Shown here in pieces: positions 997 through 59,038 of a stretch of DNA of 64,000 bases. Below the pieces are notes generated by a model. The model was given only the letters and a program-made list of their open reading frames with translations, was not told the origin of the DNA and searched no databases. Origin of the DNA: Flectonema sp. DT1601 (taxonomy: Eukaryota); NCBI GenBank assembly GCA_964019425.1, contig OZ025801.1, forward strand, positions 558,001 through 622,000. Direction: 5' to 3'. Numbering within the stretch: position 1 is the stretch's first letter; each line of letters begins with the position of its first letter. Both the position numbers and the translations under genes were made by a program.

Positions 997-1130
997 AAAT
1001 CCATTCAGAATAGCCTTATACTTCGCTGAACGCAGACAAAAGTCCTGTCGCACGGGGAAAATAAATCATGACCATAAGAAATACCGGCTTTTCAATCTGA
1101 ATAGTTTTTTTTCTCCGAACACGTCGGTTC
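997..1130 (+). mobile_element. Short interspersed element family F1, copy
   Basis: ccattcagaat...aatctgaatagttt inverted pair plus ccgaacacgtcgg hairpin and A-run; aligns by eye to the other copies. Confidence 0.85.
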
Positions 1131-1406
1131 AAAAAAAAAAAAAAAAAAAAGTTCAGACAATTCATCATGATTGAAACAATGTAAGATAAGGAAGTCCAAT
1201 ACATTGCATACCTAGTATTAATAATTATCAGTCAATCAAAAAAAAGCAAAAAATCGTAGGACAACAAACAAGTTGGTTTCGGGCTAAGATTAAAAACAAT
1301 CTTTCTTCGGACCATTCCCCTTACCCAGCCCCTTCAGCGAAGAAAGTAAGGGGGACACTGCGGTGTCAGGCCTGTCCTACTCATCGCGTTTGCCCTTCTC
1401 AGCCTA

Positions 1407-2557: not shown

Positions 2558-5500
2558 CTACGTAGCAAAGCTATAAATTGACGTTCCACCTGTACTTGAT
2601 TTTCTTACCCACGTTTTTCGTTTATCTTTCATTGGCGATGCTTGAGGTGAAGCTAGAGGTAGCGGCTGGTTTTTTTTTTTTTTTTTTTTTTTTTTTCCCC
2701 CTATATTATTAGTATAACTCATTAAAAAAAAAAACACACAAACAACACTAACCAGCGTCTAAGAGAACAAATTAAAAAAAAACCATTCAGATTAACCTTA
2801 TATTTCGTTGAACGCAGCAGACAAAATCTTGTCGCACGGGGAAAAAAAATCATGACCATAAGAAATAATCGGTTTTCAATCTGAATAGTTTCTTCTCCGA
2901 CTACGTCGGTACAAAAAAAAAAAATACACACCTCTTGGAAAACTTTAATATCACAAAGTAAGTAACTTCCTCTAATTGTTCGGCTGTGAGCATCACGAAG
3001 AGGGCAGCTACGAATGCCAGATCGCATGCATGATAACGGGACTGATGTCTCACACACGAAAGATTCATTTTTTTTATTAAGTACTCGAAGAGTCACAATA
3101 GCGATCTCAGGGACTTTACTTTGAAGAATTAGAACCTCATTCCAAGTTGGATTAAAACCGTTTGAGTGAACAGACGCTGTTTTAATCGGATTTTTAGACG
3201 TGTCGTCACCAGGAACACTGGAGATCATCGCCTCAACGTACGGGTCAATCGTTCTCGCTGATTTTGGTAAGTTGCCTCCCTTTATAACTTTTATATGAAT
3301 TGTTGTAGTTCCAGTGTCTTGGTATGAGGCTCCAATAGCACGAAGCCATGGAGGCTTTAATATGTATCCACTGGAACCGTTGTCTTCAAATTTCACCTGA
3401 TTCAACCGTGTAGAGTAGTCTGGAGTTTGAAGGTTCAATGCAACAAATTGACTACCGCCAGCCCAGTATAGTTGTGGGTCAAAATTTGATGAATCGACTC
3501 TTGTTGCTCGGGGATATATTCTCGTACAGCAGATTTTATTGAGTTCTGCAAAGGGAACTCCCATTAACTCGTCAGCTTTACGTTCTTGAAGACTGATACA
3601 TTCATAAGGCTTTGCGTTAGGGATATGAATGGATGGATTGCCGTGATTAAGTTTATTAGCCATCAAATAAACACATCCACTCAGTGATGGAGCAACTGTT
3701 TTCTGAACAACAACAACGGGACCGTCACTACCTTCATTATCGCTTTCCGTGTTAACAAAAGCTGATACGTCATCCCCACCCCCAAGAAAGGTCGGAGATA
3801 AATACTGGATGCTAGTCTTTCTTGTAGTATTCATTCCTGTGCTTGGATTCATCATAGCAGCCTTAACTAGGATTCGTCCTCGTAATGCTTCAGGAGTGAA
3901 GGAAGGGTCGTTTAACTGAATTCCTGAATAAGCAATTGGTTCGTGTAGTTTGTTTCCAAATATATTTTTCATAACCCTCGCCATAATATCTTGTTGTGGT
4001 AACGAAGCGTGCACCTCTAGCGACAGTATCACAGGGTATGGTGATACAACAAATGCGTATTGATTTATAGTTTTTATAACTTCTGTAAAACTTATTTTCG
4101 TAGTCTTGGTATGGCCGTGAGTCACTATCGGTTCTTCCCTTCCATCCCAAATATCAATTTCTAGACAACGACACCCTCTAAGCAAGGCATACTTATACAT
4201 TAACGGACTGCTCTCACTTGTTAGTTGATCTCCAGAGAGATATGTGTTGTGAGAAGATGAGATGAAATAATTTGTTAGAGGTTTAGTCATATCTTGGTAA
4301 ACAGCTCCCTTCTTGTGATCAAACCAACTGTTTGCTGGAGAGCAAATATAACGTGAGAATTCAGGTAAGGAAAGAGACTGTGAATTCAGACCTGCTCCCC
4401 AGTCTTGAACTACTGCCTCAATCTGAGCAGTCGTAACATAATCACCTTGACGTGTTGAGTATCTATGTAATTGTGAACTTGTCATAACGTCTTGTCCACT
4501 TGTGATTGCATTAAAAATAGGTTTAATCGCAGAATCATCAAAAAGGTTTTCATAGAAATTTGTAAACTGCCTAAACCCTAACATCCCGTCATCATCCGCA
4601 TTTGCGTTGTATAAGTCTTTCAGTTCTGAATTAGTCATTGAGATGTTAAGTGGTCTGGTCATTTGTTTTATATTCGCGAGGCTTAGTCTTCCACATGAAT
4701 CTTTATCACATATAAAAAACAATTCAATAAGTCGAATTGCGTGATGTGCTGCAGCTAAAATAGTAGGTTCTTTCGAAAAATGTTTACTACGAAGATCTTC
4801 AACCACATCCATCATTGGTGAACACCACACTGGAATGCTTCTTGCAAGCACGTCGAATCGATGCCAAGCAGGCATGTCGTAGAGTGTTCCTATAGCTGCC
4901 TGAACTCGTATAGCAAGACCTTTCATTTGGTATACCTCCATGTTTGGTCGGAGTAGAAATGAAAAAACTTCTTTGACTTTAACGATTAATTTCACAACGA
5001 CAGGTGTCATTGGAACAGGTGAATACTGCACATCAATACTCGCTGTTTGAGACATTTCACTGAAGATATCAATATTTCCTTTTGACCTTCGACAACAACA
5101 TAAAAAACTTTTTAAAGTCTGAATCACTCCTCCTCCCCTCCAAAGAGCAGATGAGGGGATGTAATGCTGTTGATTTATACTGATAGTGTTTCTTAATCCA
5201 GCTGTGGTGTTGGAAAGGACACCTGAATTGTCAGCTTCTTGTATATCCTTGATTGTTCCAACAGGAACTTTAATCTTCTCAGCAGCTACAATGTAAGTAT
5301 CACCCTGTCGTATGTCACCCAGTAGTGTTCTCGCAAACGAACTGTCAGTCGGATGCGATGTCTCAGATGACGTACTTTCATTGTATAAGTTTGAAATATC
5401 ACCGTCATCTGAGCATTCCTCTGAAAAGCATTGAGCATCCCTGTCTAAAACTGCTTGAACAGCATCTTCCAGAACATGAGATGATAAACTAGTTTTATAT

Positions 5501-5958: not shown

Positions 5959-6389
5959 ATCATTCTCTGGGGGGGTTTTCTGTATGGTTTTTTTTTAAAG
6001 GGAAAAAAATAATAATTCATACGAACAGTAAAAACATGTCAATTAGTAGGTTTCCCCCGTTCATAGAGAGATAAAGAAATAAGACAACCGCCGAAGAAAA
6101 AAAAGAAGAAAAAAAAAAAGAGACTGTCACAAGATTGTGGTGTTTATTTTTATTTTTCTTTCTTTTGCTTTTTTTTTTTTTTTTTCCGCATTACAAGTAG
6201 TATAGATAGTGTGCACAATTATTTTCTCGTTTTGACAATCAAATTCGCTAATATAAAAAATAAATTAAAAAATAATCAAAAAAAAAAAAGAATATAAAGA
6301 AATAAATATATAACGATAAACCATGGTTTTAGCACCCAATTTAAAAAATATAGGCTCAATACATCCTTTCTTTTTTTTTTTTTTTTTTT

Positions 6390-6940
6390 GTACCGACATA
6401 AGTCGGAGAAGAAACTACTCAGATTGAAAGCCGTTATTTCTTGTGGTCATGACATATTTCCCCGTGCGACAGGATTCTGTCCGCGTTCAGCAAAAGAAAA
6501 CTGTGTCTGGCATAAACCCCAACACTGTACTTCATTTGTCGGCTGCAGCAGGACGTGGGCCGCGAGTGCGAGGCCTCGAGGCGGCACAACGTCGGCTGAT
6601 TCAGTTTCGGAACAGTTGCACGTGGCGATGAGTGTTCTGTTGTCGTGGGATCTGGACATTATTTATTGAGTCGAGAGGCAGAGGTCTCGGACCGAGGGTT
6701 CAATCTCAACTCCACTGCGCTCGAGTACGTGAAATGGTCGCAAGCAGCACTGAGAAGCACATGATCGTAAAAGGCCAGATGCTGACTGAATACGTGAGAG
6801 GGCTAAAAAGAACCGGCGCGCTCCCACCGTTGCCAGGCGGTTCCAGTGGTGGAAGCGCGCCAGGTGGTACGCGCTTCAGACTGCGATGACCTTCCAATGT
6901 GCCTGTGTTCAACGAATTATATAGCTATTCCGTATGGTTT
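6390..6940 (-). mobile_element. Long F1 copy with ~420-bp GC-rich internal segment
   Basis: Hairpin end at 6390-6490 and degenerate opposite end (gttcaacgaattatatagctattccgtatggttt) at 6907-6940. Confidence 0.75.
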
Positions 6941-8154
6941 TTTATTTTCGTTTTTGCAACCAGAAAACTAAATCCCTGTTATTTGTGCCTAAGGAACTCA
7001 TACTACTGATATAAAACTTCGTACGCAACAGTGACAGGATAGGGGAAAGTAGAAATGCGACAACCAAAGTGATCATTTTTGGTGAATCCACAATCACTTT
7101 GGTGGGGGCATTGTTCCACTTTTCCAGCCCAGTCAACATTACACCGATATATCCGATTGGTCATTTTAATCCAACGTTGCTTGAAAATTATTACTTCACA
7201 ATTAGTTTGATACAAAAAAAAGAACGAAAAAAAAAAAAAAAAAAAGGAATCAACTATCACCTTCTGAGCAAAATATTTTTTTTTATGAGCGACAACCATG
7301 GCAATAATAACTGTGAGTAAATTGTAAAGATCGTACTTTCATTTCGCAGCTATTAGAAAAGGTACTCGGCCTAGTGGAGTGTACAATGAGACAGAAAAAA
7401 ACACCTGCCGTCATTAGAAATTATGTTCTTAATGTAAGAAACAAGACCACCAATTATCGAGAGAAAAATACGTCGTGGTTGATTGCGAAAAAAGAAAATT
7501 AAAATAAAATAATCCATCCACGCTTCGAGTTATCGCTTAGATACGTCTAAAGTGTTTTTTTTTTTTTTTTTTTTTTGTTTGTTTCTTAAAAAAAAAAAAA
7601 ACAAAAAAAAAACACGCGCGATTATTAACAGAACAATTGAACTAAACTTAGATTGCCTTTACTCACTTAAGTTATTTCACAGAAAAAAGAGAAAAAAAAA
7701 AAAAGGAAAGTGAAGAAGGCACCCTTCCCAATCGTCATTGGAAGCAATGGGGAGGGACGGACGTACGTATTCTATCATATAAAAAAAATATGAAAAAACA
7801 ATCGCATAGAAACAATTAAAAACAAATTATTTATTATTATTTATTTATTTATTTACGAAGCCTAGGAAGCCAAAAGCCAGGAAAAGCTCACAGAGTAACA
7901 GTTATATCGCTACCAGCAACCGTGAGACTCTCACAGACGATAAGAGACGTAGAATAACCTGGAACAAATGACTACCTAAACCCACCGTCCACGCGAGCAG
8001 ACAGTGTTAGAGACGGCTGATAACGCCAATTTTCGCCAAAGAGAGGGAGAACACGCCACATTAGATCAGAAAATAAGAAATAAAGTAATGATAAGTAATA
8101 GAAATGATACTAATAAATAAAATAAGAAATTACACTAGAGGAAAGAGACGTTCA

Positions 8155-11100
8155 TTATCTACCTCGGGGATTACTTCGCAGGAGGCGACTTAGGCGAGAG
8201 AGGAACTTAGAAAGCTTGGATTCCGACCAGCTAGGATTGACCAGCACATTAACCATAGAAAGGTCATCAATAACAACATTTAAATCGGTAGCTTTATAAG
8301 CGTTATCAATAAGTTCCATAACATATTTCTTCACATCAGAACCCAGTAGCGAGAAACTTGTCTTCCTTTCGATGTGTGTGATTAGTTTCTTCCTCACAAA
8401 AATACCCTGAAGCGGAAACTTCAACAACAACGGATTGTCAGATAACTCTTTAAGATGATTATCAAGCTTGCTGATCAATAACAACGTGAAAGGCTGCCAT
8501 TCGGTTCGAAAGAACATATCCAGAGATAGCTCATCATCAGGTGTCGGAAATCTCATGGTTTGCTTTACCAATTCCCTGGTCTCAACGCATTCAAGCAGCA
8601 GATGCTCAGTTGAGGTATCCTGAAAGCCACAGAACAGACAACATTTAAAGCCCGCGGTGACCCTCGGTAGCTTTACAAGCCTATGGTGAGAGGTTCGCAG
8701 ACGAGACAATTCTACCTCCTGCCCCCTAGTGAGACAGGGAAGGAAACGCTGAGGGCCAGATCCTAGAGTCGCTTTGCTGTATGAATGCGAAGAGTCCACA
8801 GTACCCATAGCCTTCCAATTTGCTTGTTTCTTAATACAACATTGAGCCATCCTGAAATCATACGGAGTTAGTTCAGGGTCAACTGATTGCAAGGCTGCCT
8901 TCTTTGCCAGTGTATCAGCCAGTTCATTCCCTGCAATGCCACAATGAGATGGGACATGCTGGAAAATCAACGGCCTATCAAGAAGCACTGAGCGTTCAAA
9001 AATCTCACAATTTGTTGATGATGACTGCCTGGATGGCCCCCTATGCAGGGAGGCAAGCGCCGACTGACAATCACTGAAAATATGAATCACGCCATGCGAA
9101 ACAACATGAAGATTCTCCTCTAGTAGTTCAAGGGCTGACAATAGTGCTAGTTGTTCTGCATTGTAAATCGTGAGGGACGGTTGGAACTTGGAGAGCTTCT
9201 CAATGACCTTGCCAGCAACTAGCAGAACAGCAGCCCCCCCACATAATAATCCCCGCTCCTCGTCATGGAAGACCGAGGCATCAGTGTAGACTTCAGCAAC
9301 ACACGGGGGCAGTTCATTGAGGGTCGTCATCGCCACAGCATACTTCTCCTCAGGTGTGTCAGTCTTGTCATAACCGCAGGACGTGTTTACAACCAAAGGA
9401 GGATGCTTCGACCACGGAGGGTACTGATGTGGCAGAACTTTCTGGGACCTAAGCTCTGACAGAGAAAATTCCGAGGAACAGGCTTCAACTCTAGTCTGCC
9501 ATGGTCTCTTCTTCTCACCACCGTTAAACAGCCTCCATGAAGGACATTCAGGTTGTCGCCTTAGCAAATCTTCATGAACTAGGGCAAGGAGCCTAGATAT
9601 CGTTTGTTGCAGCGGTGGAATTCGCGACTCAACTGTGAGCACCACATCCTTCGTCGAGAACGAGCAACCAGTGAGTCTTATCCGTAGATGACGCAAGCAC
9701 GCTTCGATCCGCTTGATCTGAGCATCAGACAAAAAGGGAGAAAAGGCCTTCAGTCCAAAGAACGCTCGAGATAACACTGCACCATCTACAAGCTGACGAA
9801 GGGTATCAGTTTTGACCTCATAGGCAGAGAACATTTTGAGTAAACCGCAACCAGCTCGAATTGTTTTCACAATCTTATCCACCTGTTCGTCGAAGCATAG
9901 CGAGTCATCAATGATAACTCCTAGGTATTTCGCGCTCCTGACACGTTTCAGCGGGATCGCTGCTTTCAGCCTGAACTCTTTGCTCTTACGAGCACAGGCC
10001 AGTCGGACAAAGTCAGAACGTCTCGTCACCGGGTAACCATCAATCTCCAGTGGCAGCAAAGCATCAGCGAGATCAAGAACTGCCCCTATTGATGGAGAAA
10101 GCTTCTCAGTGAGAGCACCGGCAGAGCCTGTAGGCATGTGTAACTCTTCAACAGACGATGGGAAGTAAAAGCGAGGTGCCCTACTCCATTCGACATCGGA
10201 GCCAGAGATGCGCTTACCAAAGGCAACGTACTCTGTTTTCTTCATGTTTACCTCCATCTTAGAGGAAACCATCCAACCTTCTATCTGAGAGATGACGGAC
10301 AGGCCCTTCGCTTCGATCCCATCTATCTTCTCATGTTGCAGAAACACGGCAAGATCATCAGCAAACAGAACACTGAGATCAGCATCACTTATTAGACCTG
10401 GCAGGGAGTCGACAAAGATCCGAAATAAGAGAGGACCAAGCACAGATCCTTGAGGGACCCCCTTCGTACACGATCTGGATCCATTATCTAATCCCAGAGA
10501 CAGACTCACATTTCTATCCGAAAGATAATTCGCAAGCCATTTAACATACGGAACCGGCAGGACAGCTACCAATCTATCAACGAGTATTTGATGATCCACG
10601 TTATCGAATGCCCCAGAGATATCAAAGAGGATGATCGCTCCATAACCATCATAGAGTTTCTGCACACCGGAAGCCGCATCCACCAATAGCGAGATGTTCT
10701 CTTCTACATTTCTGCCCGGCGTAAAACCAGACTGCCTAGGGTCCAACTTCCCCTCCAACAAATGTTCACATCGATTACCTACAAGCGACTCCAAGCACTT
10801 CGAAACAATTGACGTCAAAGAGATTGGTCTGTAAGAAGACGGAAGAAGCGGGTCACGATCCCCTCCCTTCGGAATTATTATCACCTTGGCCTTTTTCATG
10901 CAAGAGGGAAAGATACCCCTCCTGAAAGATAGCGAGGCGAGTCTAAGCAATAGTAGGAGCATACGGGGACCCAAGTTAAGCAGCATATTATTAGAAACAG
11001 AATCTAAACCAGACCCGTGGGAGGGAGTCAATGACTTCAGTACCGTGTATAACTCATGAATCGAAAAAGAACCACAGCTTGAGTCATCATAATCAGCAGG

Positions 11101-12318
11101 CTTCGAATCAGGAACTAATAACGGTGAGGATTTTGAATCACCAAAGAAATGGTCGAGTAAATCATCAGCAGCTACCGGAACTTCCTTCGAATTAGACCGA
11201 CCGCCCCTGAGTTCCCGCAGTTTGTCGAAGGCCCAGGCCGCTCCTTTTGAAGAACCAATTTTCGCAATAAGATCAGGTCTCAGCTTAGGTAATTTCTTCC
11301 TCCGCTTCGTATCAGATTTGAACCATTTGTTTGGAAGCGTTTCAATAGCCACCTCCTCAATTAGACTAATAAATTCACATCCAAGCTTGTTCACATTAGA
11401 CATCCCCTCCAAACGATGAGCTCGCGCTTCAGTTAGCACGCGAAATGAGACCCAGTGCTCATCCTCGAACTTGTTGTAGAACCAGCGGCGGTGAGCGGGA
11501 GTGGTAATTTGTGAGCAGCCCGGATATACCGAGATGTCAACCACTATTGGCGTGTGGTCGGACCCACTATCAGACGCACTGTACTGGTGTACATTCAACA
11601 CCTCAATATTGCTGTCGACAAGAAACAAATCAGGTGAAGTCTCTGAACAAGGTCTTGTATCCAGCGGAACATCGCAAATCTGCAGTCCATTTCCGTTAAT
11701 CCAATCAAGAACTGACAGACCTCGCGACGAACTACTTGTTGGAACCACCCTCGACCACGACCGATGGTGAGCATTGAAATCTCCACATACTACTTCACCG
11801 AAGACAACAGAGGTCGGCACCAAGAAATTCTGCGGAATATACACATTAGAAGACGTAATCGGACCGATGTCTGTCATTACCTCGACAACTAACACCTCAA
11901 ACGGTGAATTACGCTCAGTTGGATCCGATAATCTCCTGACCACAAGGGAGTCCCTGCAGAAAGTCGCCAGTCCACCACCGCGTTTTGCCTTGCCATCAAA
12001 ATTTAATCTGATTCTGTCCCTACGGAAGCAGGTGTATCCCTGAAGTTGAATCTGTTCATCAAGAACCAGATCAGTGAGCCAAGTTTCTTGAATATGGAGG
12101 ATGTCAGGATTAGCCGATTGAACGAGCCGTACCAGAGATTCATGGTGCTTTACCATCGACAGCGCATTCCAACTAAGTATTCTCAGCGGCGATATATCAG
12201 ACATCGGACCAGGGTGTCTCGGAAAACCACTACGATAGAGTTCCAGAAGCCCACTCACAGAATAATAGTACTCCAAGGACGGAGTCTTTCCCAATAAAGA
12301 GTCAATTGGAAGTGGTTG
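8155..12318 (-). CDS. LINE ORF2: AP endonuclease, reverse transcriptase, RNase H, CCHC finger
   Basis: APE: ILSWNA, IQETW, GDFNAH, SDH. RT: YRPISLTS, DISGAFD, GVPQGSVLGP, FADD, KYLGV. RNase H: YTDAS, SDCQSAL, HVPSHCGIAGNELAD. CxxC...HxxxxC finger. Frame is open up to the ORF1 stop; first ATG is at 12204. Confidence 0.95.
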   Translation of the reverse strand, partial: QPLPIDSLLGKTPSLEYYYSVSGLLELYRSGFPRHPGPMSDISPLRILSWNALSMVKHHESLVRLVQSANPDILHIQETWLTDLVLDEQIQLQGYTCFRRDRIRLNFDGKAKRGGGLATFCRDSLVVRRLSDPTERNSPFEVLVVEVMTDIGPITSSNVYIPQNFLVPTSVVFGEVVCGDFNAHHRSWSRVVPTSSSSRGLSVLDWINGNGLQICDVPLDTRPCSETSPDLFLVDSNIEVLNVHQYSASDSGSDHTPIVVDISVYPGCSQITTPAHRRWFYNKFEDEHWVSFRVLTEARAHRLEGMSNVNKLGCEFISLIEEVAIETLPNKWFKSDTKRRKKLPKLRPDLIAKIGSSKGAAWAFDKLRELRGGRSNSKEVPVAADDLLDHFFGDSKSSPLLVPDSKPADYDDSSCGSFSIHELYTVLKSLTPSHGSGLDSVSNNMLLNLGPRMLLLLLRLASLSFRRGIFPSCMKKAKVIIIPKGGDRDPLLPSSYRPISLTSIVSKCLESLVGNRCEHLLEGKLDPRQSGFTPGRNVEENISLLVDAASGVQKLYDGYGAIILFDISGAFDNVDHQILVDRLVAVLPVPYVKWLANYLSDRNVSLSLGLDNGSRSCTKGVPQGSVLGPLLFRIFVDSLPGLISDADLSVLFADDLAVFLQHEKIDGIEAKGLSVISQIEGWMVSSKMEVNMKKTEYVAFGKRISGSDVEWSRAPRFYFPSSVEELHMPTGSAGALTEKLSPSIGAVLDLADALLPLEIDGYPVTRRSDFVRLACARKSKEFRLKAAIPLKRVRSAKYLGVIIDDSLCFDEQVDKIVKTIRAGCGLLKMFSAYEVKTDTLRQLVDGAVLSRAFFGLKAFSPFLSDAQIKRIEACLRHLRIRLTGCSFSTKDVVLTVESRIPPLQQTISRLLALVHEDLLRRQPECPSWRLFNGGEKKRPWQTRVEACSSEFSLSELRSQKVLPHQYPPWSKHPPLVVNTSCGYDKTDTPEEKYAVAMTTLNELPPCVAEVYTDASVFHDEERGLLCGGAAVLLVAGKVIEKLSKFQPSLTIYNAEQLALLSALELLEENLHVVSHGVIHIFSDCQSALASLHRGPSRQSSSTNCEIFERSVLLDRPLIFQHVPSHCGIAGNELADTLAKKAALQSVDPELTPYDFRMAQCCIKKQANWKAMGTVDSSHSYSKATLGSGPQRFLPCLTRGQEVELSRLRTSHHRLVKLPRVTAGFKCCLFCGFQDTSTEHLLLECVETRELVKQTMRFPTPDDELSLDMFFRTEWQPFTLLLISKLDNHLKELSDNPLLLKFPLQGIFVRKKLITHIERKTSFSLLGSDVKKYVMELIDNAYKATDLNVVIDDLSMVNVLVNPSWSESKLSKFLSRLSRLLRSNPRGR

Positions 12319-14040
12319 TTAATTCCTCGAGTAGTCCCGTTTCTCATTCCGGTCAAGACGGTCAGCCATTTCAGACTTAGTAGCAGCAACAGAGTTAGCT
12401 CGTTGCCTACTTGAGACCGTCAGCCTCTGAGAACCCGATCCTTTATCGTTATTCAGGGTCTCAATCTCCTTTCGAAGACATCTATTCGCATCCCTCTCTT
12501 CAGCAAGGTCCTGCCGTAGACTCTTCACAGCAGCCGTTAGTTCAGTAACCTGCGATACCAATTTAGAAATGTCGGATTGTTGACAGTTGTACTGCGAAGG
12601 CGGTAGGGGCAGCTGCTGTTTGTTCGATTGTAGCGTCTGCAGATATTGCTGATTTTGCTGATTTTGCTGAGAAACAGGCGGTGGTGATAAATCAATTCCA
12701 ACAGATGGCGCAGCGTTAGGTTGACAGAGGTGAGGAAACTCGTCCAGGTCCATCTTATCGGGATTCTGCTTGCCGAGACCCACCTCTTTGATTGTGATCA
12801 TGTCATCACGAAGAATGATGAAGTTACTCTTGGGTTTCTCCTTGGCCACTACAATCATCTTAGGAAGCTCCTTTCTGCTCCTGTATCGAGCAACGACGTT
12901 AATCTCCCACCCTTGGTGAGCACAGACCTGCACTACTTCCAGCGAACTCATCGCATCAATTGCTCGGCTCCTCAAACAGAACTTGAGGCCTTCAGGTGGA
13001 GGCGGCAGTGCATTCTCACCCAGCTTCGATCGCACGTAATCTTCGTCGGTCTTCAGACACACAATCCCCAGCTTGCGTGAGTGGCGGTAGAACCTCAGAG
13101 GTAACCGGAGTTCACCGGCTAGCGATGAGGCTAACTTAAAATCCACCGTGAGCTGGATTGACGACCTGCACGGTGCTGTGTCTGCGAAATTCGGTACTGA
13201 TAAGAAGTACCCACCACTCCCACTTGCCCTTCTCAAGGCGTCAACAGCGTCTGCTGGCACCCTCATGTTCACAGACTTAACATGAGGGTCTGATTCCTTC
13301 TTGTTGGCAGGCCACAAGAGGTGCGGCTCGATGGGCATGTTCGTGACTGCTGTGTAGTAGTCAGAAGCCTTCTTGCACAACTCATTAGGTGAAGGTACCT
13401 TGTCGTTGGAGTGGAGCGCGTGGTGGTGGAACAATACCACTCGATTGTCACCGGCAGTCAGAGCGTCTCCACGGAAGAGGGTAGCTGGTTTCCCGGTTGA
13501 TACAATCCAACCGGTCCGATGTGTCAGGACACCGTCGTTTACCACCGCCGGGAACTGTATCTTCTTACCGCCCCCAGGGTTTTTCTTGCAAATTACCGAG
13601 AGGTTTGTTCCCGGTCGGAGTTTAATCATCGCATCTACATCAGAGGCCGTGCCCAGTGACACACCACACGTAATCGACGTGTTAAACACGCCTGACATCG
13701 AAATTATTGGAACAGACCAGTCATCATCACGGAGTTGGCAGTCCCACCGCTTCTCTTGCACATTCGGTAAATTAGTTGCTGCCTTCCCATCACATCGGAC
13801 CTCCTTCAGTCCACTAAACGAATTCAGCGCTTGAGCCGGCTCAGGCTTGCGCTTCACTACCTTGGGCCGCTTACCACGTACCCTCGTCCATTCCTCATTC
13901 ATCGGCGATAAATCCACCGATGGCTTCTCTCCCCCGTTGCGTTTAGTAACCCCCTTTACATTCAAACCCTTCTGCATCTCACCGAGCATGCCCACCATCT
14001 TCTCCAGCATCAGGCCAAATAGGCCTGGATCCAATGTCAT
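12319..14040 (-). CDS. LINE ORF1 (573 aa; Gln-rich stretch and C-terminal coiled coil)
   Basis: Long ORF directly upstream of and in frame with ORF2; ATG 20 nt after the SL relic; no obvious CCHC knuckle. Confidence 0.85.
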   Translation of the reverse strand: MTLDPGLFGLMLEKMVGMLGEMQKGLNVKGVTKRNGGEKPSVDLSPMNEEWTRVRGKRPKVVKRKPEPAQALNSFSGLKEVRCDGKAATNLPNVQEKRWDCQLRDDDWSVPIISMSGVFNTSITCGVSLGTASDVDAMIKLRPGTNLSVICKKNPGGGKKIQFPAVVNDGVLTHRTGWIVSTGKPATLFRGDALTAGDNRVVLFHHHALHSNDKVPSPNELCKKASDYYTAVTNMPIEPHLLWPANKKESDPHVKSVNMRVPADAVDALRRASGSGGYFLSVPNFADTAPCRSSIQLTVDFKLASSLAGELRLPLRFYRHSRKLGIVCLKTDEDYVRSKLGENALPPPPEGLKFCLRSRAIDAMSSLEVVQVCAHQGWEINVVARYRSRKELPKMIVVAKEKPKSNFIILRDDMITIKEVGLGKQNPDKMDLDEFPHLCQPNAAPSVGIDLSPPPVSQQNQQNQQYLQTLQSNKQQLPLPPSQYNCQQSDISKLVSQVTELTAAVKSLRQDLAEERDANRCLRKEIETLNNDKGSGSQRLTVSSRQRANSVAATKSEMADRLDRNEKRDYSRN

Positions 14041-14060
14041 AGTTGTTAATTATTGGAAAT

Positions 14061-14076
14061 CAATAAAGTACAGATA
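14061..14076 (-). other. Second, partial SL relic
   Basis: TATCTGTACTTTATTG = last 16 nt of the SL with one mismatch, 20 nt upstream of the ORF1 ATG. Confidence 0.85.
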
Positions 14077-14110
14077 TTAGCCTAATATTTCGTTGAACAC
14101 AAACGGAATC

Positions 14111-14148
14111 CAATAAAGTACAGAAACTGTAGCTTTAGAATCGTTGGT
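14111..14148 (-). other. Retro-copied spliced-leader exon (diplonemid type)
   Basis: Reverse complement ACCAACGATTCTAAAGCTACAGTTTCTGTACTTTATTG matches the euglenozoan SL 3' core CAGTTTCTGTACT(T/A)TATTG and, from memory, the diplonemid 5' part. Not followed by a GT donor, so not an SL RNA gene. Confidence 0.92.
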
Positions 14149-14599
14149 GGAAATAAAAAAGAATCGACAACTTTATTTTTTTTTACTTTTTTACTCACAT
14201 TTTTTTTTGTTTTGTGACGCAACCAGGTGCAAAATCCTAATAAAGGAATAGGTTAGGTTGCGCTGCCACAATTCTCTTTCTACCTAACAACGGGTTGTAG
14301 GTTTATAAAAATAAATAAAAAACGAAAGAAAATATAGAACACTGATTAAGACTCACAACCTCGTCGACTTTTTTTTTTTTTTTTTTTTAAAATGAAAAAT
14401 CTGTCGACCTCAGTCTGTTCCAATTAGTTTGAATTTCGAATGACAATCACGACGGGAGAAAGTCTCGGCAATGTTGATGCGTGTCATATTTTTTTTTTTG
14501 TTGTTGTTGTTTTGATCGTGCGCAACCAAAAAAACAATTTTGTAAAGTTTAAGGTAAACGTTTCTCTTTCAATCGTAAAACACGTTTTCGAGATGGAGA

Positions 14600-15260: not shown

Positions 15261-15431
15261 AAAGAATTGGCTTTATCTGCATCTATACAGAAAATAATAA
15301 TATAACAACTGTGATTTTTTTTGTTTGTGTCACGAAACCCCCCGTGAACCGACTTAAACTGATAAAGCTAAAGGAGGTTTACGTGTGCTGCCCAACATTC
15401 TTTTTCGTTCTTACAATACTTGTTAAATGCA
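15261..15431 (-). repeat. F2 copy
   Basis: Reverse complement of 1948-2113. Confidence 0.9.
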
Positions 15432-15892: not shown

Positions 15893-18800
15893 TTAGTTAT
15901 GGTTGGTTTGACTCAAAAGCAGGAAAGGTTCACAAGTCAACTGATGGATTTGCAAACCTCGACTTCCCGCAAACCATGTGCCTGCTTTCGTCGTACGCAT
16001 GCCACATCCACAACAAAAGTATATTCCAACGCAATTCAAGCAAACATTCCAATCACATGTTAAACTCTCACCTTTACAAGGGAGACGACATTCAAGTATT
16101 TGTCCAAAGAAATAATTTGAATCACATAAATCACAAAAAACTGGTTTATTAATGAGAACTATTTCAAGATCGTGACCTTGTGGGCAAGTGGTGGTTACAC
16201 CTTTTTGTTCTAACTCGGTATGTACTTTCATTGGAGAGAGCACCTTGCAGGATTTAGAATCTGTTTCATTGACGATACTTTTCGATAAGAATCTACTCGT
16301 TATGTCCTTTTCGTTTAAAACAAATAAAGGTAATATGATTTCTAAACCTCCTTCACGCAATTTATCAAAGAGTACCCCGGCTTCGTCAGGTAAGTTTTCA
16401 CTCTCCACATCAGTAAAGCCAGAACAGGTAACCAAATTAAACAGGCCATTGAGAATGACCTCAGTATACTCTATACACCAATCATTGATTACTGACCAAT
16501 CGTATGGCCCTAGTATTGGGAAAAAGTGCTCAGATGGAACATTTGCATGGTGCCCGAGTATGATGAACCCCCTGACAAGTAAAAAAGTAGACCGCGCGTC
16601 GGGAGCGACAAAGTAAGCGGAGTCTTTTTGCTCATAAGGGTCCATACTTAGGAAGAAAAAACTAACACCCAATACATTTGATAAGGCTTGTATGGCTGCA
16701 TGGTCTGCCCACACACCATCAAAACCCATTCCAAGTGCATATTCGTCGTAATTACCGAGTACAAAGTTTTTATATTTATCACTATACTCTACTAACTCAG
16801 CACTGGTGAATTCACGCAGCGTCGCTGCATCAAAGAAGTAAAAGATTTGTTTCGATACTGCTTCAAAGAAACAATTACCAAAACGGTTCACGTCTTCAGG
16901 GTAAAGACCAACTTCTTCCATATACCATATCGTGTGGTCAATTGTAAAGTAATCCACTTTTCCTTCTTGAACAATTGGTTCTTCTGGAATCAACACTACG
17001 GCTTTAGGCGGGTAAACAATAAACTGTCTTTCTTTTGGAAAATGGTAAGAGTGAGGGTTGTTTAATTTGCCAAAGACAACATGAACTAAAGAAAATAATC
17101 TCTTATATGTGGAATCGTAGGCTTTATAAAACTCATCGCAGAATTCACGAAAAGCAAATGCTACGTCTTGTTTCTTAAAACCTCTTTTCCACATTCTATA
17201 AAGTATAAATTCAAATTCAACAAAAAGATCAGGTAAATTATTACAAATCATTGCAGCTCTAAACATAGCACCTTTAACCACTCCTTTCGGTATAGACACT
17301 GGCATAGTTGAATTACTATGTACATATTGCAAAGGGCGAAAAGACCAATCCTTTCGGCTTATAGATAACCTGATAAACTTTCTCTTTTCCTTTGTTTCAA
17401 TTCTGATTCTTGCTCCCAAAAAGACTACGTGGTCTTCACTAATCGTAGTGTCTTTGTAGTCCATCTTGTAGATGCTTGGGGGTGGAGGCTCATGCCCCCA
17501 GCAAAGGAAGTCATCAATATAACGCACCATAGTGCTATAAATCTTTGCTTTTGGAGGGGTTAACGTATCAATGTATTTACTCTCACACTGATAGCAATAA
17601 AGGTTTGCTATTAAAGGGGAAGCATTACCACCCATTGGTATTCCTTTTGTTTGTCTATAACATTTTTTACTTCCGATCGGTTGAATTAATGAATAATCAA
17701 TACACATGTTGATATGTTCAATAACTTGTTCAACGGTAAGGTTTTTCGTCTTGGGTGGTTTCGTTTCGGTAAAAAAATATTCACTTTTTCCTTGCGAATG
17801 ACGCGTTAGGTACTTCAGTTTTTTGTAAGTAAAAGCTTCTTTCACAGCTGCCGCACATTGTTCTTTAAGATAGTCATGTGGTAAGTTGCTGTACATTGTA
17901 GTAAAATCAAAAGTTTTTGGTGGGGTGGAAGCGCTATAAATTGGGTATTTCCTTTTAATAGTTGTAATAACGTCGTCGACAGAATCAACAATGAAATATC
18001 TACGTACACCTGTACGAGCAAACTCTATACAATCTTTTATGTAAAGCACTTTGAGAATCGTTTTTAGAAAACCGACTACTTCCAACTGTACATCCGTCAT
18101 TATATTAGACAAACCTCTAGCCGATAGAGCTGCTATTGTCTCTACTTTTGTATCTTTCAAACGGTTGTCTTTTTCCAAAAACTCATTTAATTCATTACTT
18201 TTTTCTTTTTTCTTTTTATCTTTTTCTGAGGTATAAACTTCACATTTGGTGGACGTGCCAGCAATCCAACGTAGTCGGATGTCCGGTAATTTGTGCAATT
18301 TCAAATTACCATAAAGGTAGGGCACAGACCCTGAAAGTTTACTAAAATTTAATTTCTTTTTTGTCGCTTCCAAGTTTTTAAACATGTCCTCTTCTGCTAA
18401 AGAATAGGACGAAATTTCTTTTCTGAGTAATTGTAAATAAAGGGTTTTACACATTACGCCAACATCATGGCGGGCTTTATCAATTGGTAAAAACACAAAA
18501 TTTTCTTTTAAGTTAGCTAATTCCTGCCGTAAGCGATAAACAGTATTGTCTGCGGGCAGGGGTTGTAATAACAATAAATGAGATAACTTATTTTTAAGCC
18601 AGGAGTTGAGGTACCGTTCGTTTTGGTTCTGTTCCTCCACCGACTCTCCCTTAAGGCTTCGTCTTACTTTGTCCGTAAAAGTATCGATAGACAAATATAA
18701 TTCTTCTAAAATTTCCGTTTGCGGAGCATGCAAGCGAAACCATAAACCCAATTCGAATAGTTTACGTAGATCACCACTACAATTGAGGTTTGTCCAGTGA

Positions 18801-19153
18801 CCCACTAAATGTTCCTGAGATGATTTTTGTCCCTGTGTGGATCTCATCTCGTTACATTTGCAAATATCATCGGATATGTGTTCCTCATCAAGTTCGGTGA
18901 CAGAACTCATATTTAGAACAACAGATCCAACAGTTCTGCCTAAGGAAAAAGACACTTTAACAGGATCAAGAGAATTGAAAAAGTTTTTGAATAGTGCGTG
19001 TTTAAATACTGAACCAAAATTTAAATTCTTAAGAGAAGGGTGAACCATTCTAAGACAGAACCGGGGCCACGTAGAACGGGGAAAAATAAAAAATGGAGGG
19101 GAAATCGTAGGGCATCTGTCCTTCTCGCAACAGCTATTTTTACCCATGTACAA
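15893..19153 (-). CDS. Penelope-like element reverse transcriptase fused to OTU-family protease and zinc fingers
   Basis: PLE RT motifs PIDKA..VMCK..Y, YGNLKLHK.P..RWIAG, FDFTTMYSNLPH, QTKGIPMGGNASPLIANLY, RYIDD. OTU-like GNCFFEAVS...GVWADHAAIQALS...EHFFPI. C-terminal Cys clusters. Start uncertain (TTG; possible frameshift to 19296). Confidence 0.88.
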   Translation of the reverse strand: MYMGKNSCCEKDRCPTISPPFFIFPRSTWPRFCLRMVHPSLKNLNFGSVFKHALFKNFFNSLDPVKVSFSLGRTVGSVVLNMSSVTELDEEHISDDICKCNEMRSTQGQKSSQEHLVGHWTNLNCSGDLRKLFELGLWFRLHAPQTEILEELYLSIDTFTDKVRRSLKGESVEEQNQNERYLNSWLKNKLSHLLLLQPLPADNTVYRLRQELANLKENFVFLPIDKARHDVGVMCKTLYLQLLRKEISSYSLAEEDMFKNLEATKKKLNFSKLSGSVPYLYGNLKLHKLPDIRLRWIAGTSTKCEVYTSEKDKKKKEKSNELNEFLEKDNRLKDTKVETIAALSARGLSNIMTDVQLEVVGFLKTILKVLYIKDCIEFARTGVRRYFIVDSVDDVITTIKRKYPIYSASTPPKTFDFTTMYSNLPHDYLKEQCAAAVKEAFTYKKLKYLTRHSQGKSEYFFTETKPPKTKNLTVEQVIEHINMCIDYSLIQPIGSKKCYRQTKGIPMGGNASPLIANLYCYQCESKYIDTLTPPKAKIYSTMVRYIDDFLCWGHEPPPPSIYKMDYKDTTISEDHVVFLGARIRIETKEKRKFIRLSISRKDWSFRPLQYVHSNSTMPVSIPKGVVKGAMFRAAMICNNLPDLFVEFEFILYRMWKRGFKKQDVAFAFREFCDEFYKAYDSTYKRLFSLVHVVFGKLNNPHSYHFPKERQFIVYPPKAVVLIPEEPIVQEGKVDYFTIDHTIWYMEEVGLYPEDVNRFGNCFFEAVSKQIFYFFDAATLREFTSAELVEYSDKYKNFVLGNYDEYALGMGFDGVWADHAAIQALSNVLGVSFFFLSMDPYEQKDSAYFVAPDARSTFLLVRGFIILGHHANVPSEHFFPILGPYDWSVINDWCIEYTEVILNGLFNLVTCSGFTDVESENLPDEAGVLFDKLREGGLEIILPLFVLNEKDITSRFLSKSIVNETDSKSCKVLSPMKVHTELEQKGVTTTCPQGHDLEIVLINKPVFCDLCDSNYFFGQILECRLPCKGESLTCDWNVCLNCVGIYFCCGCGMRTTKAGTWFAGSRGLQIHQLTCEPFLLLSQTNHN

Positions 19154-30399: not shown

Positions 30400-32920
30400 T
30401 CGAGGAAGCGGGAATTGAACTTAATACTTTTTTTTCAGCATCATTGCAGGCAGAACTACAACGAACCCTTACTGCTGCAGTAATGCGAGCTGAGGGAAGA
30501 AAAAAAAAAAAAAAAAGAGGAGAAAACTGAAAGCTTTGTTTATGCCTTCAATGTGCACAATAATTTCCAGTAATTATGGGGAAAACAAATCACGTCGTCC
30601 CCCGGAATACCAGGTTTTTTTTTTGCTTCCTCAATACTTGTTGTTAACACGAAGAAAGAGAGGAGGGAAAGAAAAAAAAAAAAGAAACTGAAATTCTGAA
30701 ACAAGTAAACCGTAACATGAATCAACCCAACAAACCTTCTCGTGACAATGACCAGTGAAGCACAAAGAACGCACGAGTGAAAACTTTCATATAAAGAAGA
30801 TAACCTCTCACAAACAAAAGAAAAAGTTTAGGATTGTGGCAGTAGCCTAATTCTAAGGTTTTCCACAAGCCAACGTGTCTTCCACCAGACAAAACGTCAG
30901 CTGGAAGACGACAAGAGTATAAAAAGAATCAAAGAGGGGTTAACTGCTTTGAGCATACCTATATAACGATATAAATATATGGATTGTCAAATGTGAACTA
31001 ATATAAGCAATTAGTAATTTTATGAGACGGTGACCTGAAAAAAATAATTACACCGAAAAAAAAAAACACACACACATAAACACAGTCGAGGTGCAGCTTA
31101 GCACAAAACATTATTGCTGCACATAACCAGTGACGTGACTACGGGTTGTTGTACTTTAGAAAGCACCGGAATTATTTGAGCGAGTGCTAAGAAACAAAAA
31201 AAAAAAGACAAAACATCAGGCAACATGAGGTAACTGTGTCTGTTCATCGGTCAAACAAAAACAAAAAAAAAAGATTAAATGAAATAAAATAAAAACTCTC
31301 ATTGGACCACAGGACACGCTGAGAGCTCTGAGGGAGTAGTAGTCGTGTGAACTTAAAAACGCAATCCAGTATGGGAATAGTAAAAAAAACAGATAAAAGC
31401 GATGACAAGACTACCATCCACGTCTGTGAATCGTCTCTCGTCTACAGAGGGAAAAGAATAAAAAAGAAACAACGGCAAAGAGCAAAATAACCAGAACAAA
31501 AAAGAAAAAAAGAAAGGGGGAAAAAAGACACCTAATCCATCCTTAGCCTTGTTCCCAAAGGAGGAAGGGAATACAGCAACTACCTTTATTCCATCCTCGA
31601 CAAGTAAAAAAACCACGGAGGAGAAAAAATGTTGGCTGTAGAACACAGCTATACCTATATAGGGAACACAAAAAATACCATCTCGGAAAATAGAAAATTG
31701 AAGGACTTTTTTTTTTTTTTTTTAGAAGAAAGGAAAAAAAAAAAAAAAAACGACAAAGCCAATACCGCACCTCATATCGACTGACGAAGAGAGATCGTAA
31801 GAAGAATAGTAGGAATCGACTTTTTAATTTTATAGGAGTTTTTTTAATAATTTAGAAAAAAAAAAAAAAAAAGAAAAAAAAAGGTTGTGAAAGAAGCCTC
31901 AAGCCTGCATAACCATTAATAATAACTGGCATACAATACAATACAAACACACTAAGCTTTGCAGTTTTTTTTTTTTTTTTTTTCATTTAATTTGTTTGCC
32001 ACGCTATCAAAATGCATATGTTAAGTTGTCATATGTACGGTTAGTTCTGAGTGCCGTCACCCAGTCTGTATAGAGACAGACCAAACGGATAATGCGACAC
32101 TCACTCTCACTGATCAGTAAGAAAACAAAAAAAAAAAAGGTGAAAGAAAAATAATGGAAAGGAAAAAAAAAAGGCAAAACAAGAGCTTTTTTTTCCTCCA
32201 TAACCTTTTTTTTTTTTTTTTTTTCATCGCCGATCGCAATTAAAAAATTATGGGGAGAAAAAAAAAAAAAAAAAAAAAAATATAAATAAATTAAAAAAAA
32301 AAAACACAACAGAGTATTGTTTTCTCACCGACTAAGAGAGAAACACATCTCAAAGTTAATTGCAATGGGGTTTTTAAGCGCTTGTTTGCTAACAAAAATT
32401 AAAACACACTCAATTAATCATTAACCAGATGTATGTACGTAAACCAGTACTTAGTGTACTCCTTATAATTTTTAATTATTACTTATTATAAAATATTATA
32501 TTTTTGTTGTGGTATTGTTGTGTGTGAGTGATCAAGTGATGCACACCGAGGAAAGAACAATCCAAAATAAAGCTGATAGGGAGCTGAGAGAGAGAGATGG
32601 TGAATAACAATAACAAAACACGAGCAAAGTATAAGAAACTATCCACATTAGAAGCTTGAGGTCTTTTCGTACATACAAAAAAAAAAAAAAAAAAAAACCT
32701 TATTCCCAATTATGTTTTTTTTTTTTTTTTTTTTTTTTTGCGCTGAAGTAATGAATAACACAGCAAAAAATATACAGTTTCTTGCCAAGAACACACAAAA
32801 TACTTAAGGCGGCAAACAATATTTTTATTTGTGTGTCTACCCAACTGAAGACGAACAGAATTACTCACTTTTTTTTTTCCTTCTTTATAAAACATGTAAA
32901 AAAGAAAAAAAAATAAATGA

Positions 32921-33067
32921 AAACCGTTCAAGTCAAGCCTTATTTTTTTTTATGTTGATCGCAGACAGTGATACTGAAAGACCAGGGAAAATAGATTACT
33001 TTTTGACCATAAATAAATAAACGGCTTTTAATCTGAATTAGTTTTCTTTTACCGACTTTGTCGGTGT
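32921..33067 (+). mobile_element. F1 copy (subfamily B)
   Basis: aagcctta...tttgaccataaataaataaacggc...aatctgaattagttt...accgactttgtcggt. Confidence 0.8.
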
Positions 33068-33295
33068 AAAAAAGAAAAAATAATAATTATAATATATAAA
33101 AACAACATTTCATGAAGTCGTTTAACACGCCAGCATTAATTAGGTAATTTCTTATTATTATTATTATTATTTTTTTTTTTATTTTTTTTTTTTTTTTTTG
33201 CTTCTTCAAGTTATTCAACAAGTTTTCACAACAAAAAGTAACTTTATTTATTATTTATTTATTTTTATTTTTTTCAAAAAAAAAAAAAAAAAAAA

Positions 33296-40195: not shown

Positions 40196-40287
40196 ACTTT
40201 TTTTATATTTCGTTGAAACGCAGACGGAATCCTGTCGCAACGGGATCAGCTTTCAATCTGAATAGTTTCTTCTGACTACATCTGTAC
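40196..40287 (+). mobile_element. Degenerate F1 copy
   Basis: ttatatttcgttgaaacgcagacggaatcctgtcgc...aatctgaatagtttcttctgactacatctgtac. Confidence 0.8.
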
Positions 40288-40676
40288 AAAAAAAAGGCGC
40301 ACTATTGGCGCTTCAGGGGATTGTTTGGCAAGTAGCCTGTCACAGATCAGCGGCCTGCCAGCTGAAGTTATTCCTGACACGGGGTCGATCAGCGCAGGAA
40401 ATGTCAGTTAATAAACCCTATCCCCCAAAAAAAAAAAATAGAAAGGGAAATAGAAATACCTTCACAGCATTAATTACCGATGGGTCACCAGTCACTTTCA
40501 GGATCATTTTTTTTTTTTTTGCTTAACCCTTTATACCTGTCGAGTAGGGAAGGCAGTTTACCATATCAACATAGAAAGAAAATAACAATTAAAAAAAAAA
40601 CAGTAATACAATCGGTTAGGCAATTATTATAATGAAAAAGGAAAAATGAAAATGAAAAAAAAAAAAAATGTGTAAA

Positions 40677-45862: not shown

Positions 45863-46694
45863 CTCTTTTCTCGTTAAAGCAGTAATAGATTGCCACCAAA
45901 CAGAGTAAGCAATAACACGTTTACCACTACTGTGCCCTGGGAAAAAAAAAAAAAAAAAAAAAAAGAAACCCCTCTCTGCCCATTATATTATCTCTTATTG
46001 TTCTCCGTATGACCATCAATAGAAGACACCCTCGTAATTTTTGGGGATTAGTTGACACTTTTCAAAAAAGTCTTTCGTTGCAGAGAAGGGACGTGCACAC
46101 CCCACACTAGTGGACAGCTCTTTTTTTTTTTTTTTTTTTTTCCACTTGAAATTTAAAAACTTAAAAATTTAAAAAAACTAATAAAAGAGAGGAAAAAAAA
46201 AAGGGGGTGAAACTTTGACTATGTAAAAAAAAACAGTAACAACTATTAGGTGTTAATACGAAATTAATATCAAATACTTGTTTGTAGTTGTTAATCAAAG
46301 AAAAGGAGAAAAGGGAAGGAGAAGGACTCGAAGTTATTTCTCGAAGGATTCCCTTTTTTGGATCGCAAGAGTAAAAATCCCTAAAAAAAAAAAGGCAGGA
46401 GGTAGAAAACAGCTTCGATGGTAACAAACGACTTGAGGGGAAGAATTGAATTGCGGGTTTTTTTTTTTTTTTTAAAAAATTTCAGCTTTATTTTAAGCAA
46501 CAAAAAAAAATTGAAAAAAAAAAAAAAAAAAAACGATAATTTGACAATCTGTTAACGATACAGCGAAAAGACTTTAGCTTTTTTTTTTTTTTATAATAAG
46601 AAACTGAAGCACCGGGTATGTATGCTTATGTGTTCAGTCATTCGTGTTACCGCACATCCTCTGGGTCTTTGCAAATATCTGAATTTTAGAAAAA

Positions 46695-46833
46695 AACTTT
46701 CAGATAAGCCTTATACTTTGTTGATCGGCGACAGTATTTCTACCGCACAGGGGAAATAGATAACATTTTGACCATAAATAAATAAACGGCTATTTTAATC
46801 TGAATAGTTTTCTTCTACCGACTTCGTCGGTGC
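46695..46833 (+). mobile_element. F1 copy (subfamily B)
   Basis: ttcagataagcc...aatctgaatagttt...accgacttcgtcggt. Confidence 0.85.
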
Positions 46834-46969
46834 ATTGAAACACCTTTTTTTTTTTTTTTTTTAAATTATCCTATGTAATTCCCATGTTAAGTCTAACTTG
46901 AAGTGAACCAATGGAAGTTTATTAAACTGACATTCCACCATTTCTGGTTGAACGCTTCGTAGAGATGGA

Positions 46970-47073: not shown

Positions 47074-47767
47074 TTTGTTAACTAAAAAAAAGAAATAAAA
47101 AAAAAGAAGAAAAAAAGAAAAAAAAAAGGCAGCCTGCTGTAGATAACAAAAAGATATAAAAAAAAAAAAATAATTATAAAAAAAAAAAAAAAAAAAAAAA
47201 GAACGTTCATCACAAAGAGCAACGAAAATAACAGTTTTTTAACCAAACAAAAAAAATTGGGGGTTTTGTGGAAAAAAAAAAAAAAAAAAAATGATTTAGA
47301 AAAAAAATTCCTTTTTCAGGAAAAGGGTTTTAAAGTAGCTAGGTTTTAATAGCTATCAGTCAATCATATAAAAAATCAAATGCAAATAAACACTAGTGGG
47401 GGTCAATTAGTTTTGTAATCCAACGTTGCTGTATATTTTGAGTGCTCTAAGAGGTAACTCACAGCAACAGAGGACCCAATCCGTAACCGTTTCCGAAGGC
47501 TGGAGCATGGATTGTTGAGTTAGTTTGAAATAAAGGAAAATTAGCTTTTTTTTTTTTCTTTTTAATTTTTTAGTTTTAAGTACACTCTTGAGGTTGGCGT
47601 CTTGCATTTTTTTTTTTTTTTTTCCCGCAACCAATCTCATTTAATCACTAGTTTGTCTCAAAGAGTAAAAAACCTTTCAGATCAGTTTTTTTGAAATAAC
47701 CAACTGCACTCATACATTCACTTAGCTAAGCATCACATTGCGAGTTGAATCAGTGAGTAGAATATCA

Positions 47768-47883
47768 AAACTATTCAGATTAGCCTTATATTTCATTGAA
47801 CGCAGACAAAATCCTGTCGCACGGGGAAAATAAGAAATATCGGCTTTCAATCTGAATAGTTTCTTCTCCGACTACGTCGGCAC
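47768..47883 (+). mobile_element. F1 copy with perfect 14-bp inverted repeats
   Basis: aaactattcagatt / aatctgaatagttt, then ccgactacgtcgg. Confidence 0.92.
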
Positions 47884-47949
47884 AAAAAAAAAAAAAAAAA
47901 AAAAAAAAAAACTTAAAAATTAAAAAATCGTTCAAATACTTTATTATTT

Positions 47950-48038
47950 ATTAATCGCTGACAGTAGAAAAACATTTGACCATAAATAAATAAACAGATT
48001 TTAATCTGAATAGTTTCTTCTACCGACTTTGTCGATGC
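47950..48038 (+). mobile_element. Truncated F1 copy (subfamily B)
   Basis: tttgaccataaataaataaac...aatctgaatagttt...ccgactttgtcg. Confidence 0.8.
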
Positions 48039-48673
48039 AAAAAAAAAACTAAATAGTAACAATAATAATTTATTCTCGCGCCTGTTGCCTTTTTTTTTTT
48101 TTTTTTTTTTCTTGTCACACACAACCATAACATAAAAAAGATACACAACCAACAAATTAAACGAGGCGTTCTACGAACTTTCTAAGGGGATTGCGCCTTC
48201 AGTATGCGTCTGCGATGATCCTAAATCTCCCACGCTGACGCATTAAACCAAGGCAGTGTCACCCTTCTTAAGGAGACTGTGTACGCCTTCAGTAAGAGCG
48301 AGCCAATAGCAAGATATGCACACTACACTGACGCATTAAACGAGTCTGATTGGTATCCGCCAACCTATCTTGAAGAAGATGGGAAACCTTTTTAACTGAC
48401 GTCAATGCTTAGTAGGCGCGAGTCATGATCATTTGTACACATCGGCCCCCGAGCTGGGGGTCGTCGTGATTTAGATCGATAAATTGATTATTCTTGTTCT
48501 GATTAGCTTTTGAATACCAAAATAAATATACTCAGAGAGTCTTTCATATTTTAGAATAGCCAGCCAACAATGAAAAAAAAAAGAAGAAAAAAAAAAAAAA
48601 AAGACCATAGATATGACTACACTTACATAACGAATATCGTCAGTATTAAGTACTCAGGGGAGGGGAGAGAGAG

Positions 48674-58394: not shown

Positions 58395-58520
58395 CAATTA
58401 CATTATAAAAAACTGTTACCACTTCCCCTTTTTTTACAAAACAAAAATTTAAAAAAGAACAATATTATTCTTTTCTTTTTTTTTTTCTTTTTTTCAAAAA
58501 AAAAAAAAAAAAAAAAAAAA

Positions 58521-58613
58521 AAACCATTCAGATTAGCCTTATATTCCGCTGTCACAACGAGAGACCACAAAATATCAGCTTTCAATCTGAATAGTTTTCC
58601 GACTACGTCGGTA
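58521..58613 (+). mobile_element. Internally shortened F1 copy
   Basis: aaaccattcagatt...aatctgaatagtttt ccgactacgtcgg tac. Confidence 0.88.
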
Positions 58614-59038
58614 CCAACAAAGTTTTTTTTTTTTTAAAAAAAGAGGAGGAACATTCCAAATACCATTGATAAGATATCAGTAAAACTGTCTTTCTTCATT
58701 GAGATGGTGAGTAGCACCACACAATATAACACGAGAAATTAACAAAAAATCTGTTCTTTTTTTTTTTTTCTTTTGCCTGATAATTAGCACTTTATCAAAT
58801 ACATAACATGCAGTAAAGCTCGCATGTAAGACTAAAAAAATCAGATTTTATGCTTTCCCAATGTTGCAAGATGGAGTAGCACCACGCAATGCAACACCAG
58901 AAATTAACAAATTTATTCTCCAGTTGCCTTATGAGACAACAAAACACTTCTCAGCAACGTTCGCACGTGGGACTAAAAAAAGAAAATCAGATCTTCGATT
59001 TTGAGAAGGTTAGCAAATACAAAAAGAGAGGAAAAAAT

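Follow-up and report, generated by a model that had tools for sequence, protein, structure and literature searches.

The repeat SIRE of Trypanosoma cruzi, itself derived from the retroelement VIPER, reportedly provides ribosomal P2-beta genes with a new acceptor for trans-splicing, as is said to have been shown on cDNA. The accessible parts of PMC4006747 and PMC2323293 do not state an acceptor role for SIRE. In dinoflagellate retrogenes, according to the accessible parts of PMC5585692 and PMC6050394, repeated relicts of the spliced leader (SL), most commonly spaced about 30 bp apart, mark repeated retroposition. Here we analyse a 64-kb stretch of eukaryotic DNA (the window; 37% GC, estimated by eye from its profile), which carries a LINE whose leader holds an SL remnant, a piece of the ~130-bp repeat F1 and a near-full SL, in that order, and from this order we infer the history discussed below. 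The locus resembles the recycled genes of dinoflagellates (Symbiodinium) in having an SL without its intron and a shortened SL tens of bases downstream, as expected after two retroposition rounds, with a spacing of 36 nt as against the 30 bp most frequent in Symbiodinium. Unlike the dinoflagellate cases, it carries an SL of 39 nt of Euglenozoan type, it has a LINE as the unit that is recycled, and the spacer is traceable to a named repeat and reveals the AG that was used. F1 and SIRE, as the latter is reported, are alike in that a short interspersed repeat supplies an AG for SL addition in a euglenozoan, and differ in that F1 is DNA-element-like, serves a LINE rather than host genes and is read in this role from a DNA fossil. 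The novelty of this case lies in its lineage and in the readable origin of its spacer. Where every mRNA receives an SL, a retroposed copy is left without its acceptor and persists only when the landing site supplies one; because the spacer belongs to a recognisable repeat, the locus preserves, base by base, which AG served. Beyond dinoflagellates, SL recycling would also take in a diplonemid-like euglenozoan and a LINE that is still young. Among the matches listed for diplonemids, retrotransposons and the SL, judged by title and the opening of the abstract, none concerned an SL-capped LINE.

Table 1. Features of the LINE and its 5' junction, F1 copies in the window, and loci with an intronless SL exon (window coordinates unless loci are named)
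Feature	Position	Strand	Remarks
SL1, DNA copy of the SL exon, 38/39 nt	14111..14148	-	first A absent, no SL intron behind; identical to exon of 28 SL RNA genes
F1 piece, 35-nt right arm	14076..14110	-	begins directly after CAG of intact copies; profile positions 87-122
SL2, one extra A and final 14 nt of SL	14061..14075	-	TCTG common to F1 and SL at the joint (microhomology)
LINE's own 20-nt leader, SL2 to ORF1 ATG	14041..14060	-	
LINE ORF1, 573 aa, no Pfam family	12319..14040	-	99.8% identical to P0137; TAA then CAA CCA at end
LINE ORF2, in frame with ORF1: AP endonuclease, reverse transcriptase, RNase H	8155..12318	-	first Met 12204, 2A-like HPGP ahead
(TAAA)n-type 3' tail	7826..7855	-	boundary inferred from one copy
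F1, full length	997..1133	-	CAG followed by GACT at hairpin apex
F1, full length	2779..2915	-	apex CAA (AG lost here); between GT and TAG at end of phospholipase C frame, likely intron
F1, opposite orientation	6387..6940	+	left part 6387-6495, ~400 bp other DNA, right end 6899-6940
F1, diverged subfamily	32920..33071	-	
F1, internal deletion	40202..40290	-	first 8 nt after AG same as junction fragment
F1, diverged subfamily	46692..46836	-	
F1, best end-to-end match to fragment	47767..47886	-	29/35 nt; long hairpin, z=-4.8
F1, diverged subfamily	47924..48042	-	apex deleted
F1	58519..58617	-	CAG kept, bases behind CAG lost
Virus-like contigs with intronless SL exon behind promoter-like motif, before ATG	L004, L005, L009, L010, L017, L018, L022-L024, L031, L034, L040, L042, L043, L045-L048, L051, L052		

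On the minus strand, SL1 is followed by the F1 piece, a single A (14075), the SL2 remnant (14074-14061), 20 nt and the ATG at 14040 (Table 1). A profile of the nine other F1 copies, from which the fragment was excluded, matches 14111-14076 at model positions 87-122 (E=0.0017), and the 35-nt spacer reaches a best local score of 40 against the rest of the window, where shuffled spacers reach at most 31 (60 of 60 shuffles); both results bear out a preliminary description of this DNA, in which the spacer between the two SLs had been recognised as F1 strand. The three copies cited there do read GCGACAG followed by GATT, as was claimed; as a copy-wide state the reading holds less well, CAG followed by GA being present in just four of all nine copies. 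That the SL is joined exactly after this AG agrees with the position of the homologous CAG, within the limit that the joining G is common to both sides: the final G of the SL and the G of F1's AG are one letter, and the junction alone would permit a 1-nt overlap. Where F1 meets SL2, the two share TCTG with one or two extra bases, and several parses are possible. The preliminary description had missed that the F1 piece is part of the LINE leader and that SL recycling accounts for the piece.

The SL sequence itself was found in 44 metagenome loci, in 28 of which it is followed by a GT donor, as in SL RNA genes, and because of these 28 continuations we regard SL1 as a true SL exon that ends at the splice donor. 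The bases after the two window copies are GA and AT, not GT, and a reading of these copies as SL RNA (mini-exon) genes was rejected for want of a GT donor and an SL intron. As in retrocopies with recycled SL relicts, the SL ends at an exon boundary directly upstream of a coding unit, with the ATG 20 nt past SL2, and the shorter relict SL2 (14 nt) lies downstream of the near-complete SL1 (38 nt). The leader type 'Euglenozoa 14' is one that we take to be diplonemid. The window's SL differs at two positions from the 'Euglenozoa 14' leader as given in the accessible part of PMC3795323. All 19 annotated long frames of the window lie on the minus strand and some are interrupted by GT-AG introns, which fits the introns and co-oriented, SL-spliced genes described for Diplonema in the accessible part of PMC10161547. 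We also note a contig end (locus L014) at which two head-to-tail SL copies precede a 5' leader and an ATG, through either a recycled SL or cDNA concatenation. Directly ahead of the present LINE copy lies a T-rich tract (14149-14165, minus strand); the first AGs downstream of it fall within SL1, of which one more round of splicing should leave no more than a short relict.

The LINE behind the second SL is intact, young and dispersed: its protein clusters hold 25 and 8 members, and full-length members are 99.8-99.9% identical in ORF2 and 95.5-99.8% identical in ORF1. A region of ~300 nt separates ORF2 from the TAAA-type tail. With an AP endonuclease, a reverse transcriptase, a simple 3' tail and many dispersed copies, the element is an APE-type non-LTR retrotransposon, and it resembles those with RNase H, presumably the Ingi/L1Tc- and I-like clades, in having AP endonuclease, reverse transcriptase, RNase H, a 2A-like motif before the endonuclease and a short tandem tail. 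It differs from these relatives, of which the nearest named ones are 25-30% identical, in its separate 573-aa ORF1 without Pfam match and in the host SL at its start. The ORF1 stop TAA is followed by CAA CCA, presumably a readthrough-type stop context, and by 38 open codons ending in a 2A-like HPGP (12204-12321, minus strand) that aligns by eye with the NPGP of the relative P0003; this arrangement suggests that ORF2 may be reached by readthrough of the ORF1 stop. The LINE is absent from the first 48 SL-bearing loci fetched, and its ORF1 patterns were unmatched in viral contigs. A second retroelement-like frame of 1094 aa with weak reverse-transcriptase and OTU matches is present at 15893-19177 (minus strand), for which we would guess a Penelope-like affiliation, and in front of it no SL remnant was seen.

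BLAST and profile searches located nine F1 copies in the 64 kb besides the junction fragment; a weak tenth match (54131-54180, E=0.027) lies inside a long coding frame and was excluded from the nine. No F1 copy beyond the short search seed was found in 109 fetched loci. The apex reads CAG followed by GA in four of the nine copies, CAA in one and CAG without the following bases in one; in two diverged copies a YAG lies close by but in different surroundings, and one copy lacks the segment. The copy at 2779-2915, the sole full-length one with the apex AG changed to AA, occupies most of a probable short phospholipase C intron. The copy at 6387-6940 may be a longer form of the family, or one that has captured foreign DNA or received an insertion; its ~400-bp insert is GC-richer and has no Pfam match below E=0.2.

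Non-autonomous Helentrons of the HINE/DINE-1 type are described in the accessible part of PMC4067079 as non-coding, with subterminal inverted repeats of 12-15 bp that lie unequally far from the two ends, a short terminal palindrome, T-rich flanks on both sides and no evident duplication. F1 is likewise non-coding and has asymmetric inverted repeats of ~14 bp, one at an end and the other ~25 nt in, a short palindrome at one end, and T-runs that flank most copies on both sides. It departs from HINE/Helentron in that its palindrome occupies the 5' end of the T-flanked strand instead of the 3' end, and for this reason we call it HINE-like only: judged from its sequence, F1 is built like a rolling-circle-like DNA element, without assignment to HINE/Helentron. 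No Rep/Helicase partner was found among the 19 long frames and six short frames scanned in the window, and Rfam gave no matches at gathering score. Classification as a SINE was rejected on account of homopolymer runs at both ends and inverted repeats, with neither a single tail nor promoter signs; the apparent SINE-like A-tail is the target-site T-run read on the other strand. Since F1 is not a SINE, the term 'antisense', which the preliminary description had applied to its strand on that presumption, is meaningless here. Fold-back is strong in one copy (z=-4.8), and two truncated copies folded no better than shuffles. In the predicted fold, CAG closes an apical hairpin stem of which GATT is the loop, and the G of the AG is predicted to be paired with a probability of 0.69-0.99 in all five copies folded.

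The SL1 end coincides with the exon end of the 28 SL RNA genes, and the F1 piece starts right after the homologous CAG. One event of trans-splicing at the internal AG of F1 best fits this exact exon end and exact post-AG start, and we consider it very likely that such splicing happened once; to this extent the earlier proposal that F1 is trans-spliced there stands. AG occurs at 37 of 695 F1 positions, and by a hand estimate (AG frequency multiplied by ~1/39 for the SL end) about 1 in 700 joins made without splicing would hit both boundaries. This estimate, together with the ordinary genomic flanks and the intact element, makes it decidedly improbable that splicing at F1 played no part and that two reverse-transcriptase jumps, or an assembly chimera, placed a complete SL ahead of the F1 arm via a 1-nt overlap at the hairpin loop, even though the junction borders the apical loop, where a pause would be plausible, and the joining G is common to SL and F1. 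A jump through the 4-nt GATT that occurs both at the SL joint of the LINE itself and in the F1 loop was rejected, as it predicts one G where two are present.

How the spliced F1 arm came to lie ahead of SL2 is less certain, and we lean towards a full recycling route, in which the LINE was copied into F1, regained an SL at F1's AG and was retroposed again. In a first step, the copying of an SL-capped LINE mRNA into a genomic F1 would have ended after 14 nt of the SL, with the joint to F1 formed at the common TCTG. The resulting 5'-truncated copy, which had no acceptor of its own, would have been transcribed within a polycistronic unit, and because its own acceptor had been lost, the SL would have been added at the nearest usable upstream AG, that of F1's CAG 35 nt away. 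The re-spliced mRNA would then have been retroposed to the present site; being intact and young, the LINE could retropose twice. Such a route requires neither a promoter nor a separate RNA from F1, nor any small capped RNA. The route is supported by the common minus-strand orientation of the 19 of 19 long frames and of 8 of 9 F1 copies. Homologous F1 copies have an AG at the place where the younger SL now stands, exactly so in four of the nine. Against it stand the single junction, the predicted pairing of the AG's G, which should hinder acceptor use, and the absence of a target-site duplication beside both LINE ends (the longest adjacent match is 5-8 nt, within chance, with a 95th percentile of 9) and of any F1 remainder behind the LINE tail. 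Target-site duplications are not universal among LINEs.

The F1-SL2 joint, with its extra bases and several parses, also tells against recycling, and a template switch would give the same sequence. Reverse transcriptase at the SL of the LINE mRNA would then have jumped at TCTG to a separate SL-capped RNA that starts at F1's AG, yielding the chimera in one round. The 4-nt microhomology at this joint and the missing target-site duplication suit such a jump, and chimeric LINE retrocopies such as U6-L1 are known; 5'-truncated LINE insertions, however, also join by microhomology, and the second RNA would have to be met exactly at the homologous spot. Recycling, moreover, has a direct precedent with similar spacing in the accessible part of PMC5585692. 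We regard the template switch as rather unlikely; it, too, still needs splicing at F1's AG.

The preliminary description had gone further and proposed that F1 copies in general are spliced there, and that the family may seed SL acceptors or give rise to small capped RNAs; in its strong form this would make F1 a portable acceptor throughout the family, with routine splicing at the apex AG. Its observation that this F1 strand mostly lies on the gene-coding (minus) strand was confirmed for 8 of the 9 full-scoring copies in the window (one-sided p 0.02 against 0.5 and 0.044 against a T-run share of 0.56; the T-run supply on the coding strand, which sets the expectation for strand bias, is 48-58%). 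The bias weakens to 5 of 6 (p 0.11-0.18) when clustered copies are counted once, and to 8 of 10 (p 0.055-0.11) with the weak tenth match included. A family-wide role is further favoured by the one fossil junction and by a pyrimidine-rich stretch ahead of CAG in full-length copies. As regards the features of a SIRE-type acceptor, the AG is present, but the upstream pyrimidine share is ordinary, ranking between the 46th and the 86th percentile among 1368 minus-strand AGs in non-coding DNA, and is lowest in the copy with the fragment's first 8 nt (40202..40290). CAG followed by GA is seen in just four of nine copies, F1 shows no SINE-like single tail or promoter signs, and the AG belongs to the hairpin stem; because it closes that stem, its conservation can be explained without splicing. 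F1 should be transcribed by virtue of its position in co-oriented gene units alone, and according to the accessible part of PMC5832876, organisms with trans-splicing commonly make occasional use of cryptic AGs.

On the evidence of one junction we do not regard F1 as a general acceptor, and a family-wide role appears quite unlikely; it can hold together with recycling, and the locus would matter much more if F1 were a general supplier of acceptors. It is likewise doubtful, though conceivable, that the LINE family lives by borrowing acceptors: new copies start at the SL and lose their own splice site, and the abundant F1, oriented with the coding strand, would be a portable acceptor cassette that keeps LINE copies, perhaps host genes too, expressible. 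If this were true, one transposon would license another through the host's trans-splicing machinery.

The same SL occurs in virus-like contigs (Table 1). The exact SL is not followed by GT in 18 of 48 loci (14 of 44 metagenome, 4 of 4 viral), and in those 18 the motif AAAA(T/A)TGA ends 18-19 nt ahead of the SL and an ATG follows 8-68 nt after it; none of the 28 gene-type loci is of this motif class, the classes being defined as exclusive. Among the exact-core SL sites of the motif type, five belong to a single viral contig of 237,777 bp, and another is on a contig that bears a giant-virus genome label. We take the motif to be the giant-virus early promoter, and the SL in these contigs, as far as their sequences go, points to giant viruses of putatively diplonemid-like hosts, marine and freshwater. 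No paper joining giant virus, spliced leader and early promoter was found. A viral-promoter origin of SL1 was rejected, the motif of the virus-like contigs being absent upstream of SL1. In one further locus (L055) the leader is of kinetoplastid type, and the motif is absent at the 18-19 nt distance.

The window contains other repeats, among them a small family in both orientations (1949-2110, 15264-15430, 20259-20310 and 26077-26180) and further small families or inverted pairs (1422-1519/46963-47061, 14599-14670/46201-46274 and 42619-42652/43263-43295). Two tandem phospholipase/carboxylesterase paralogues are present at 60446-62083 on the minus strand.
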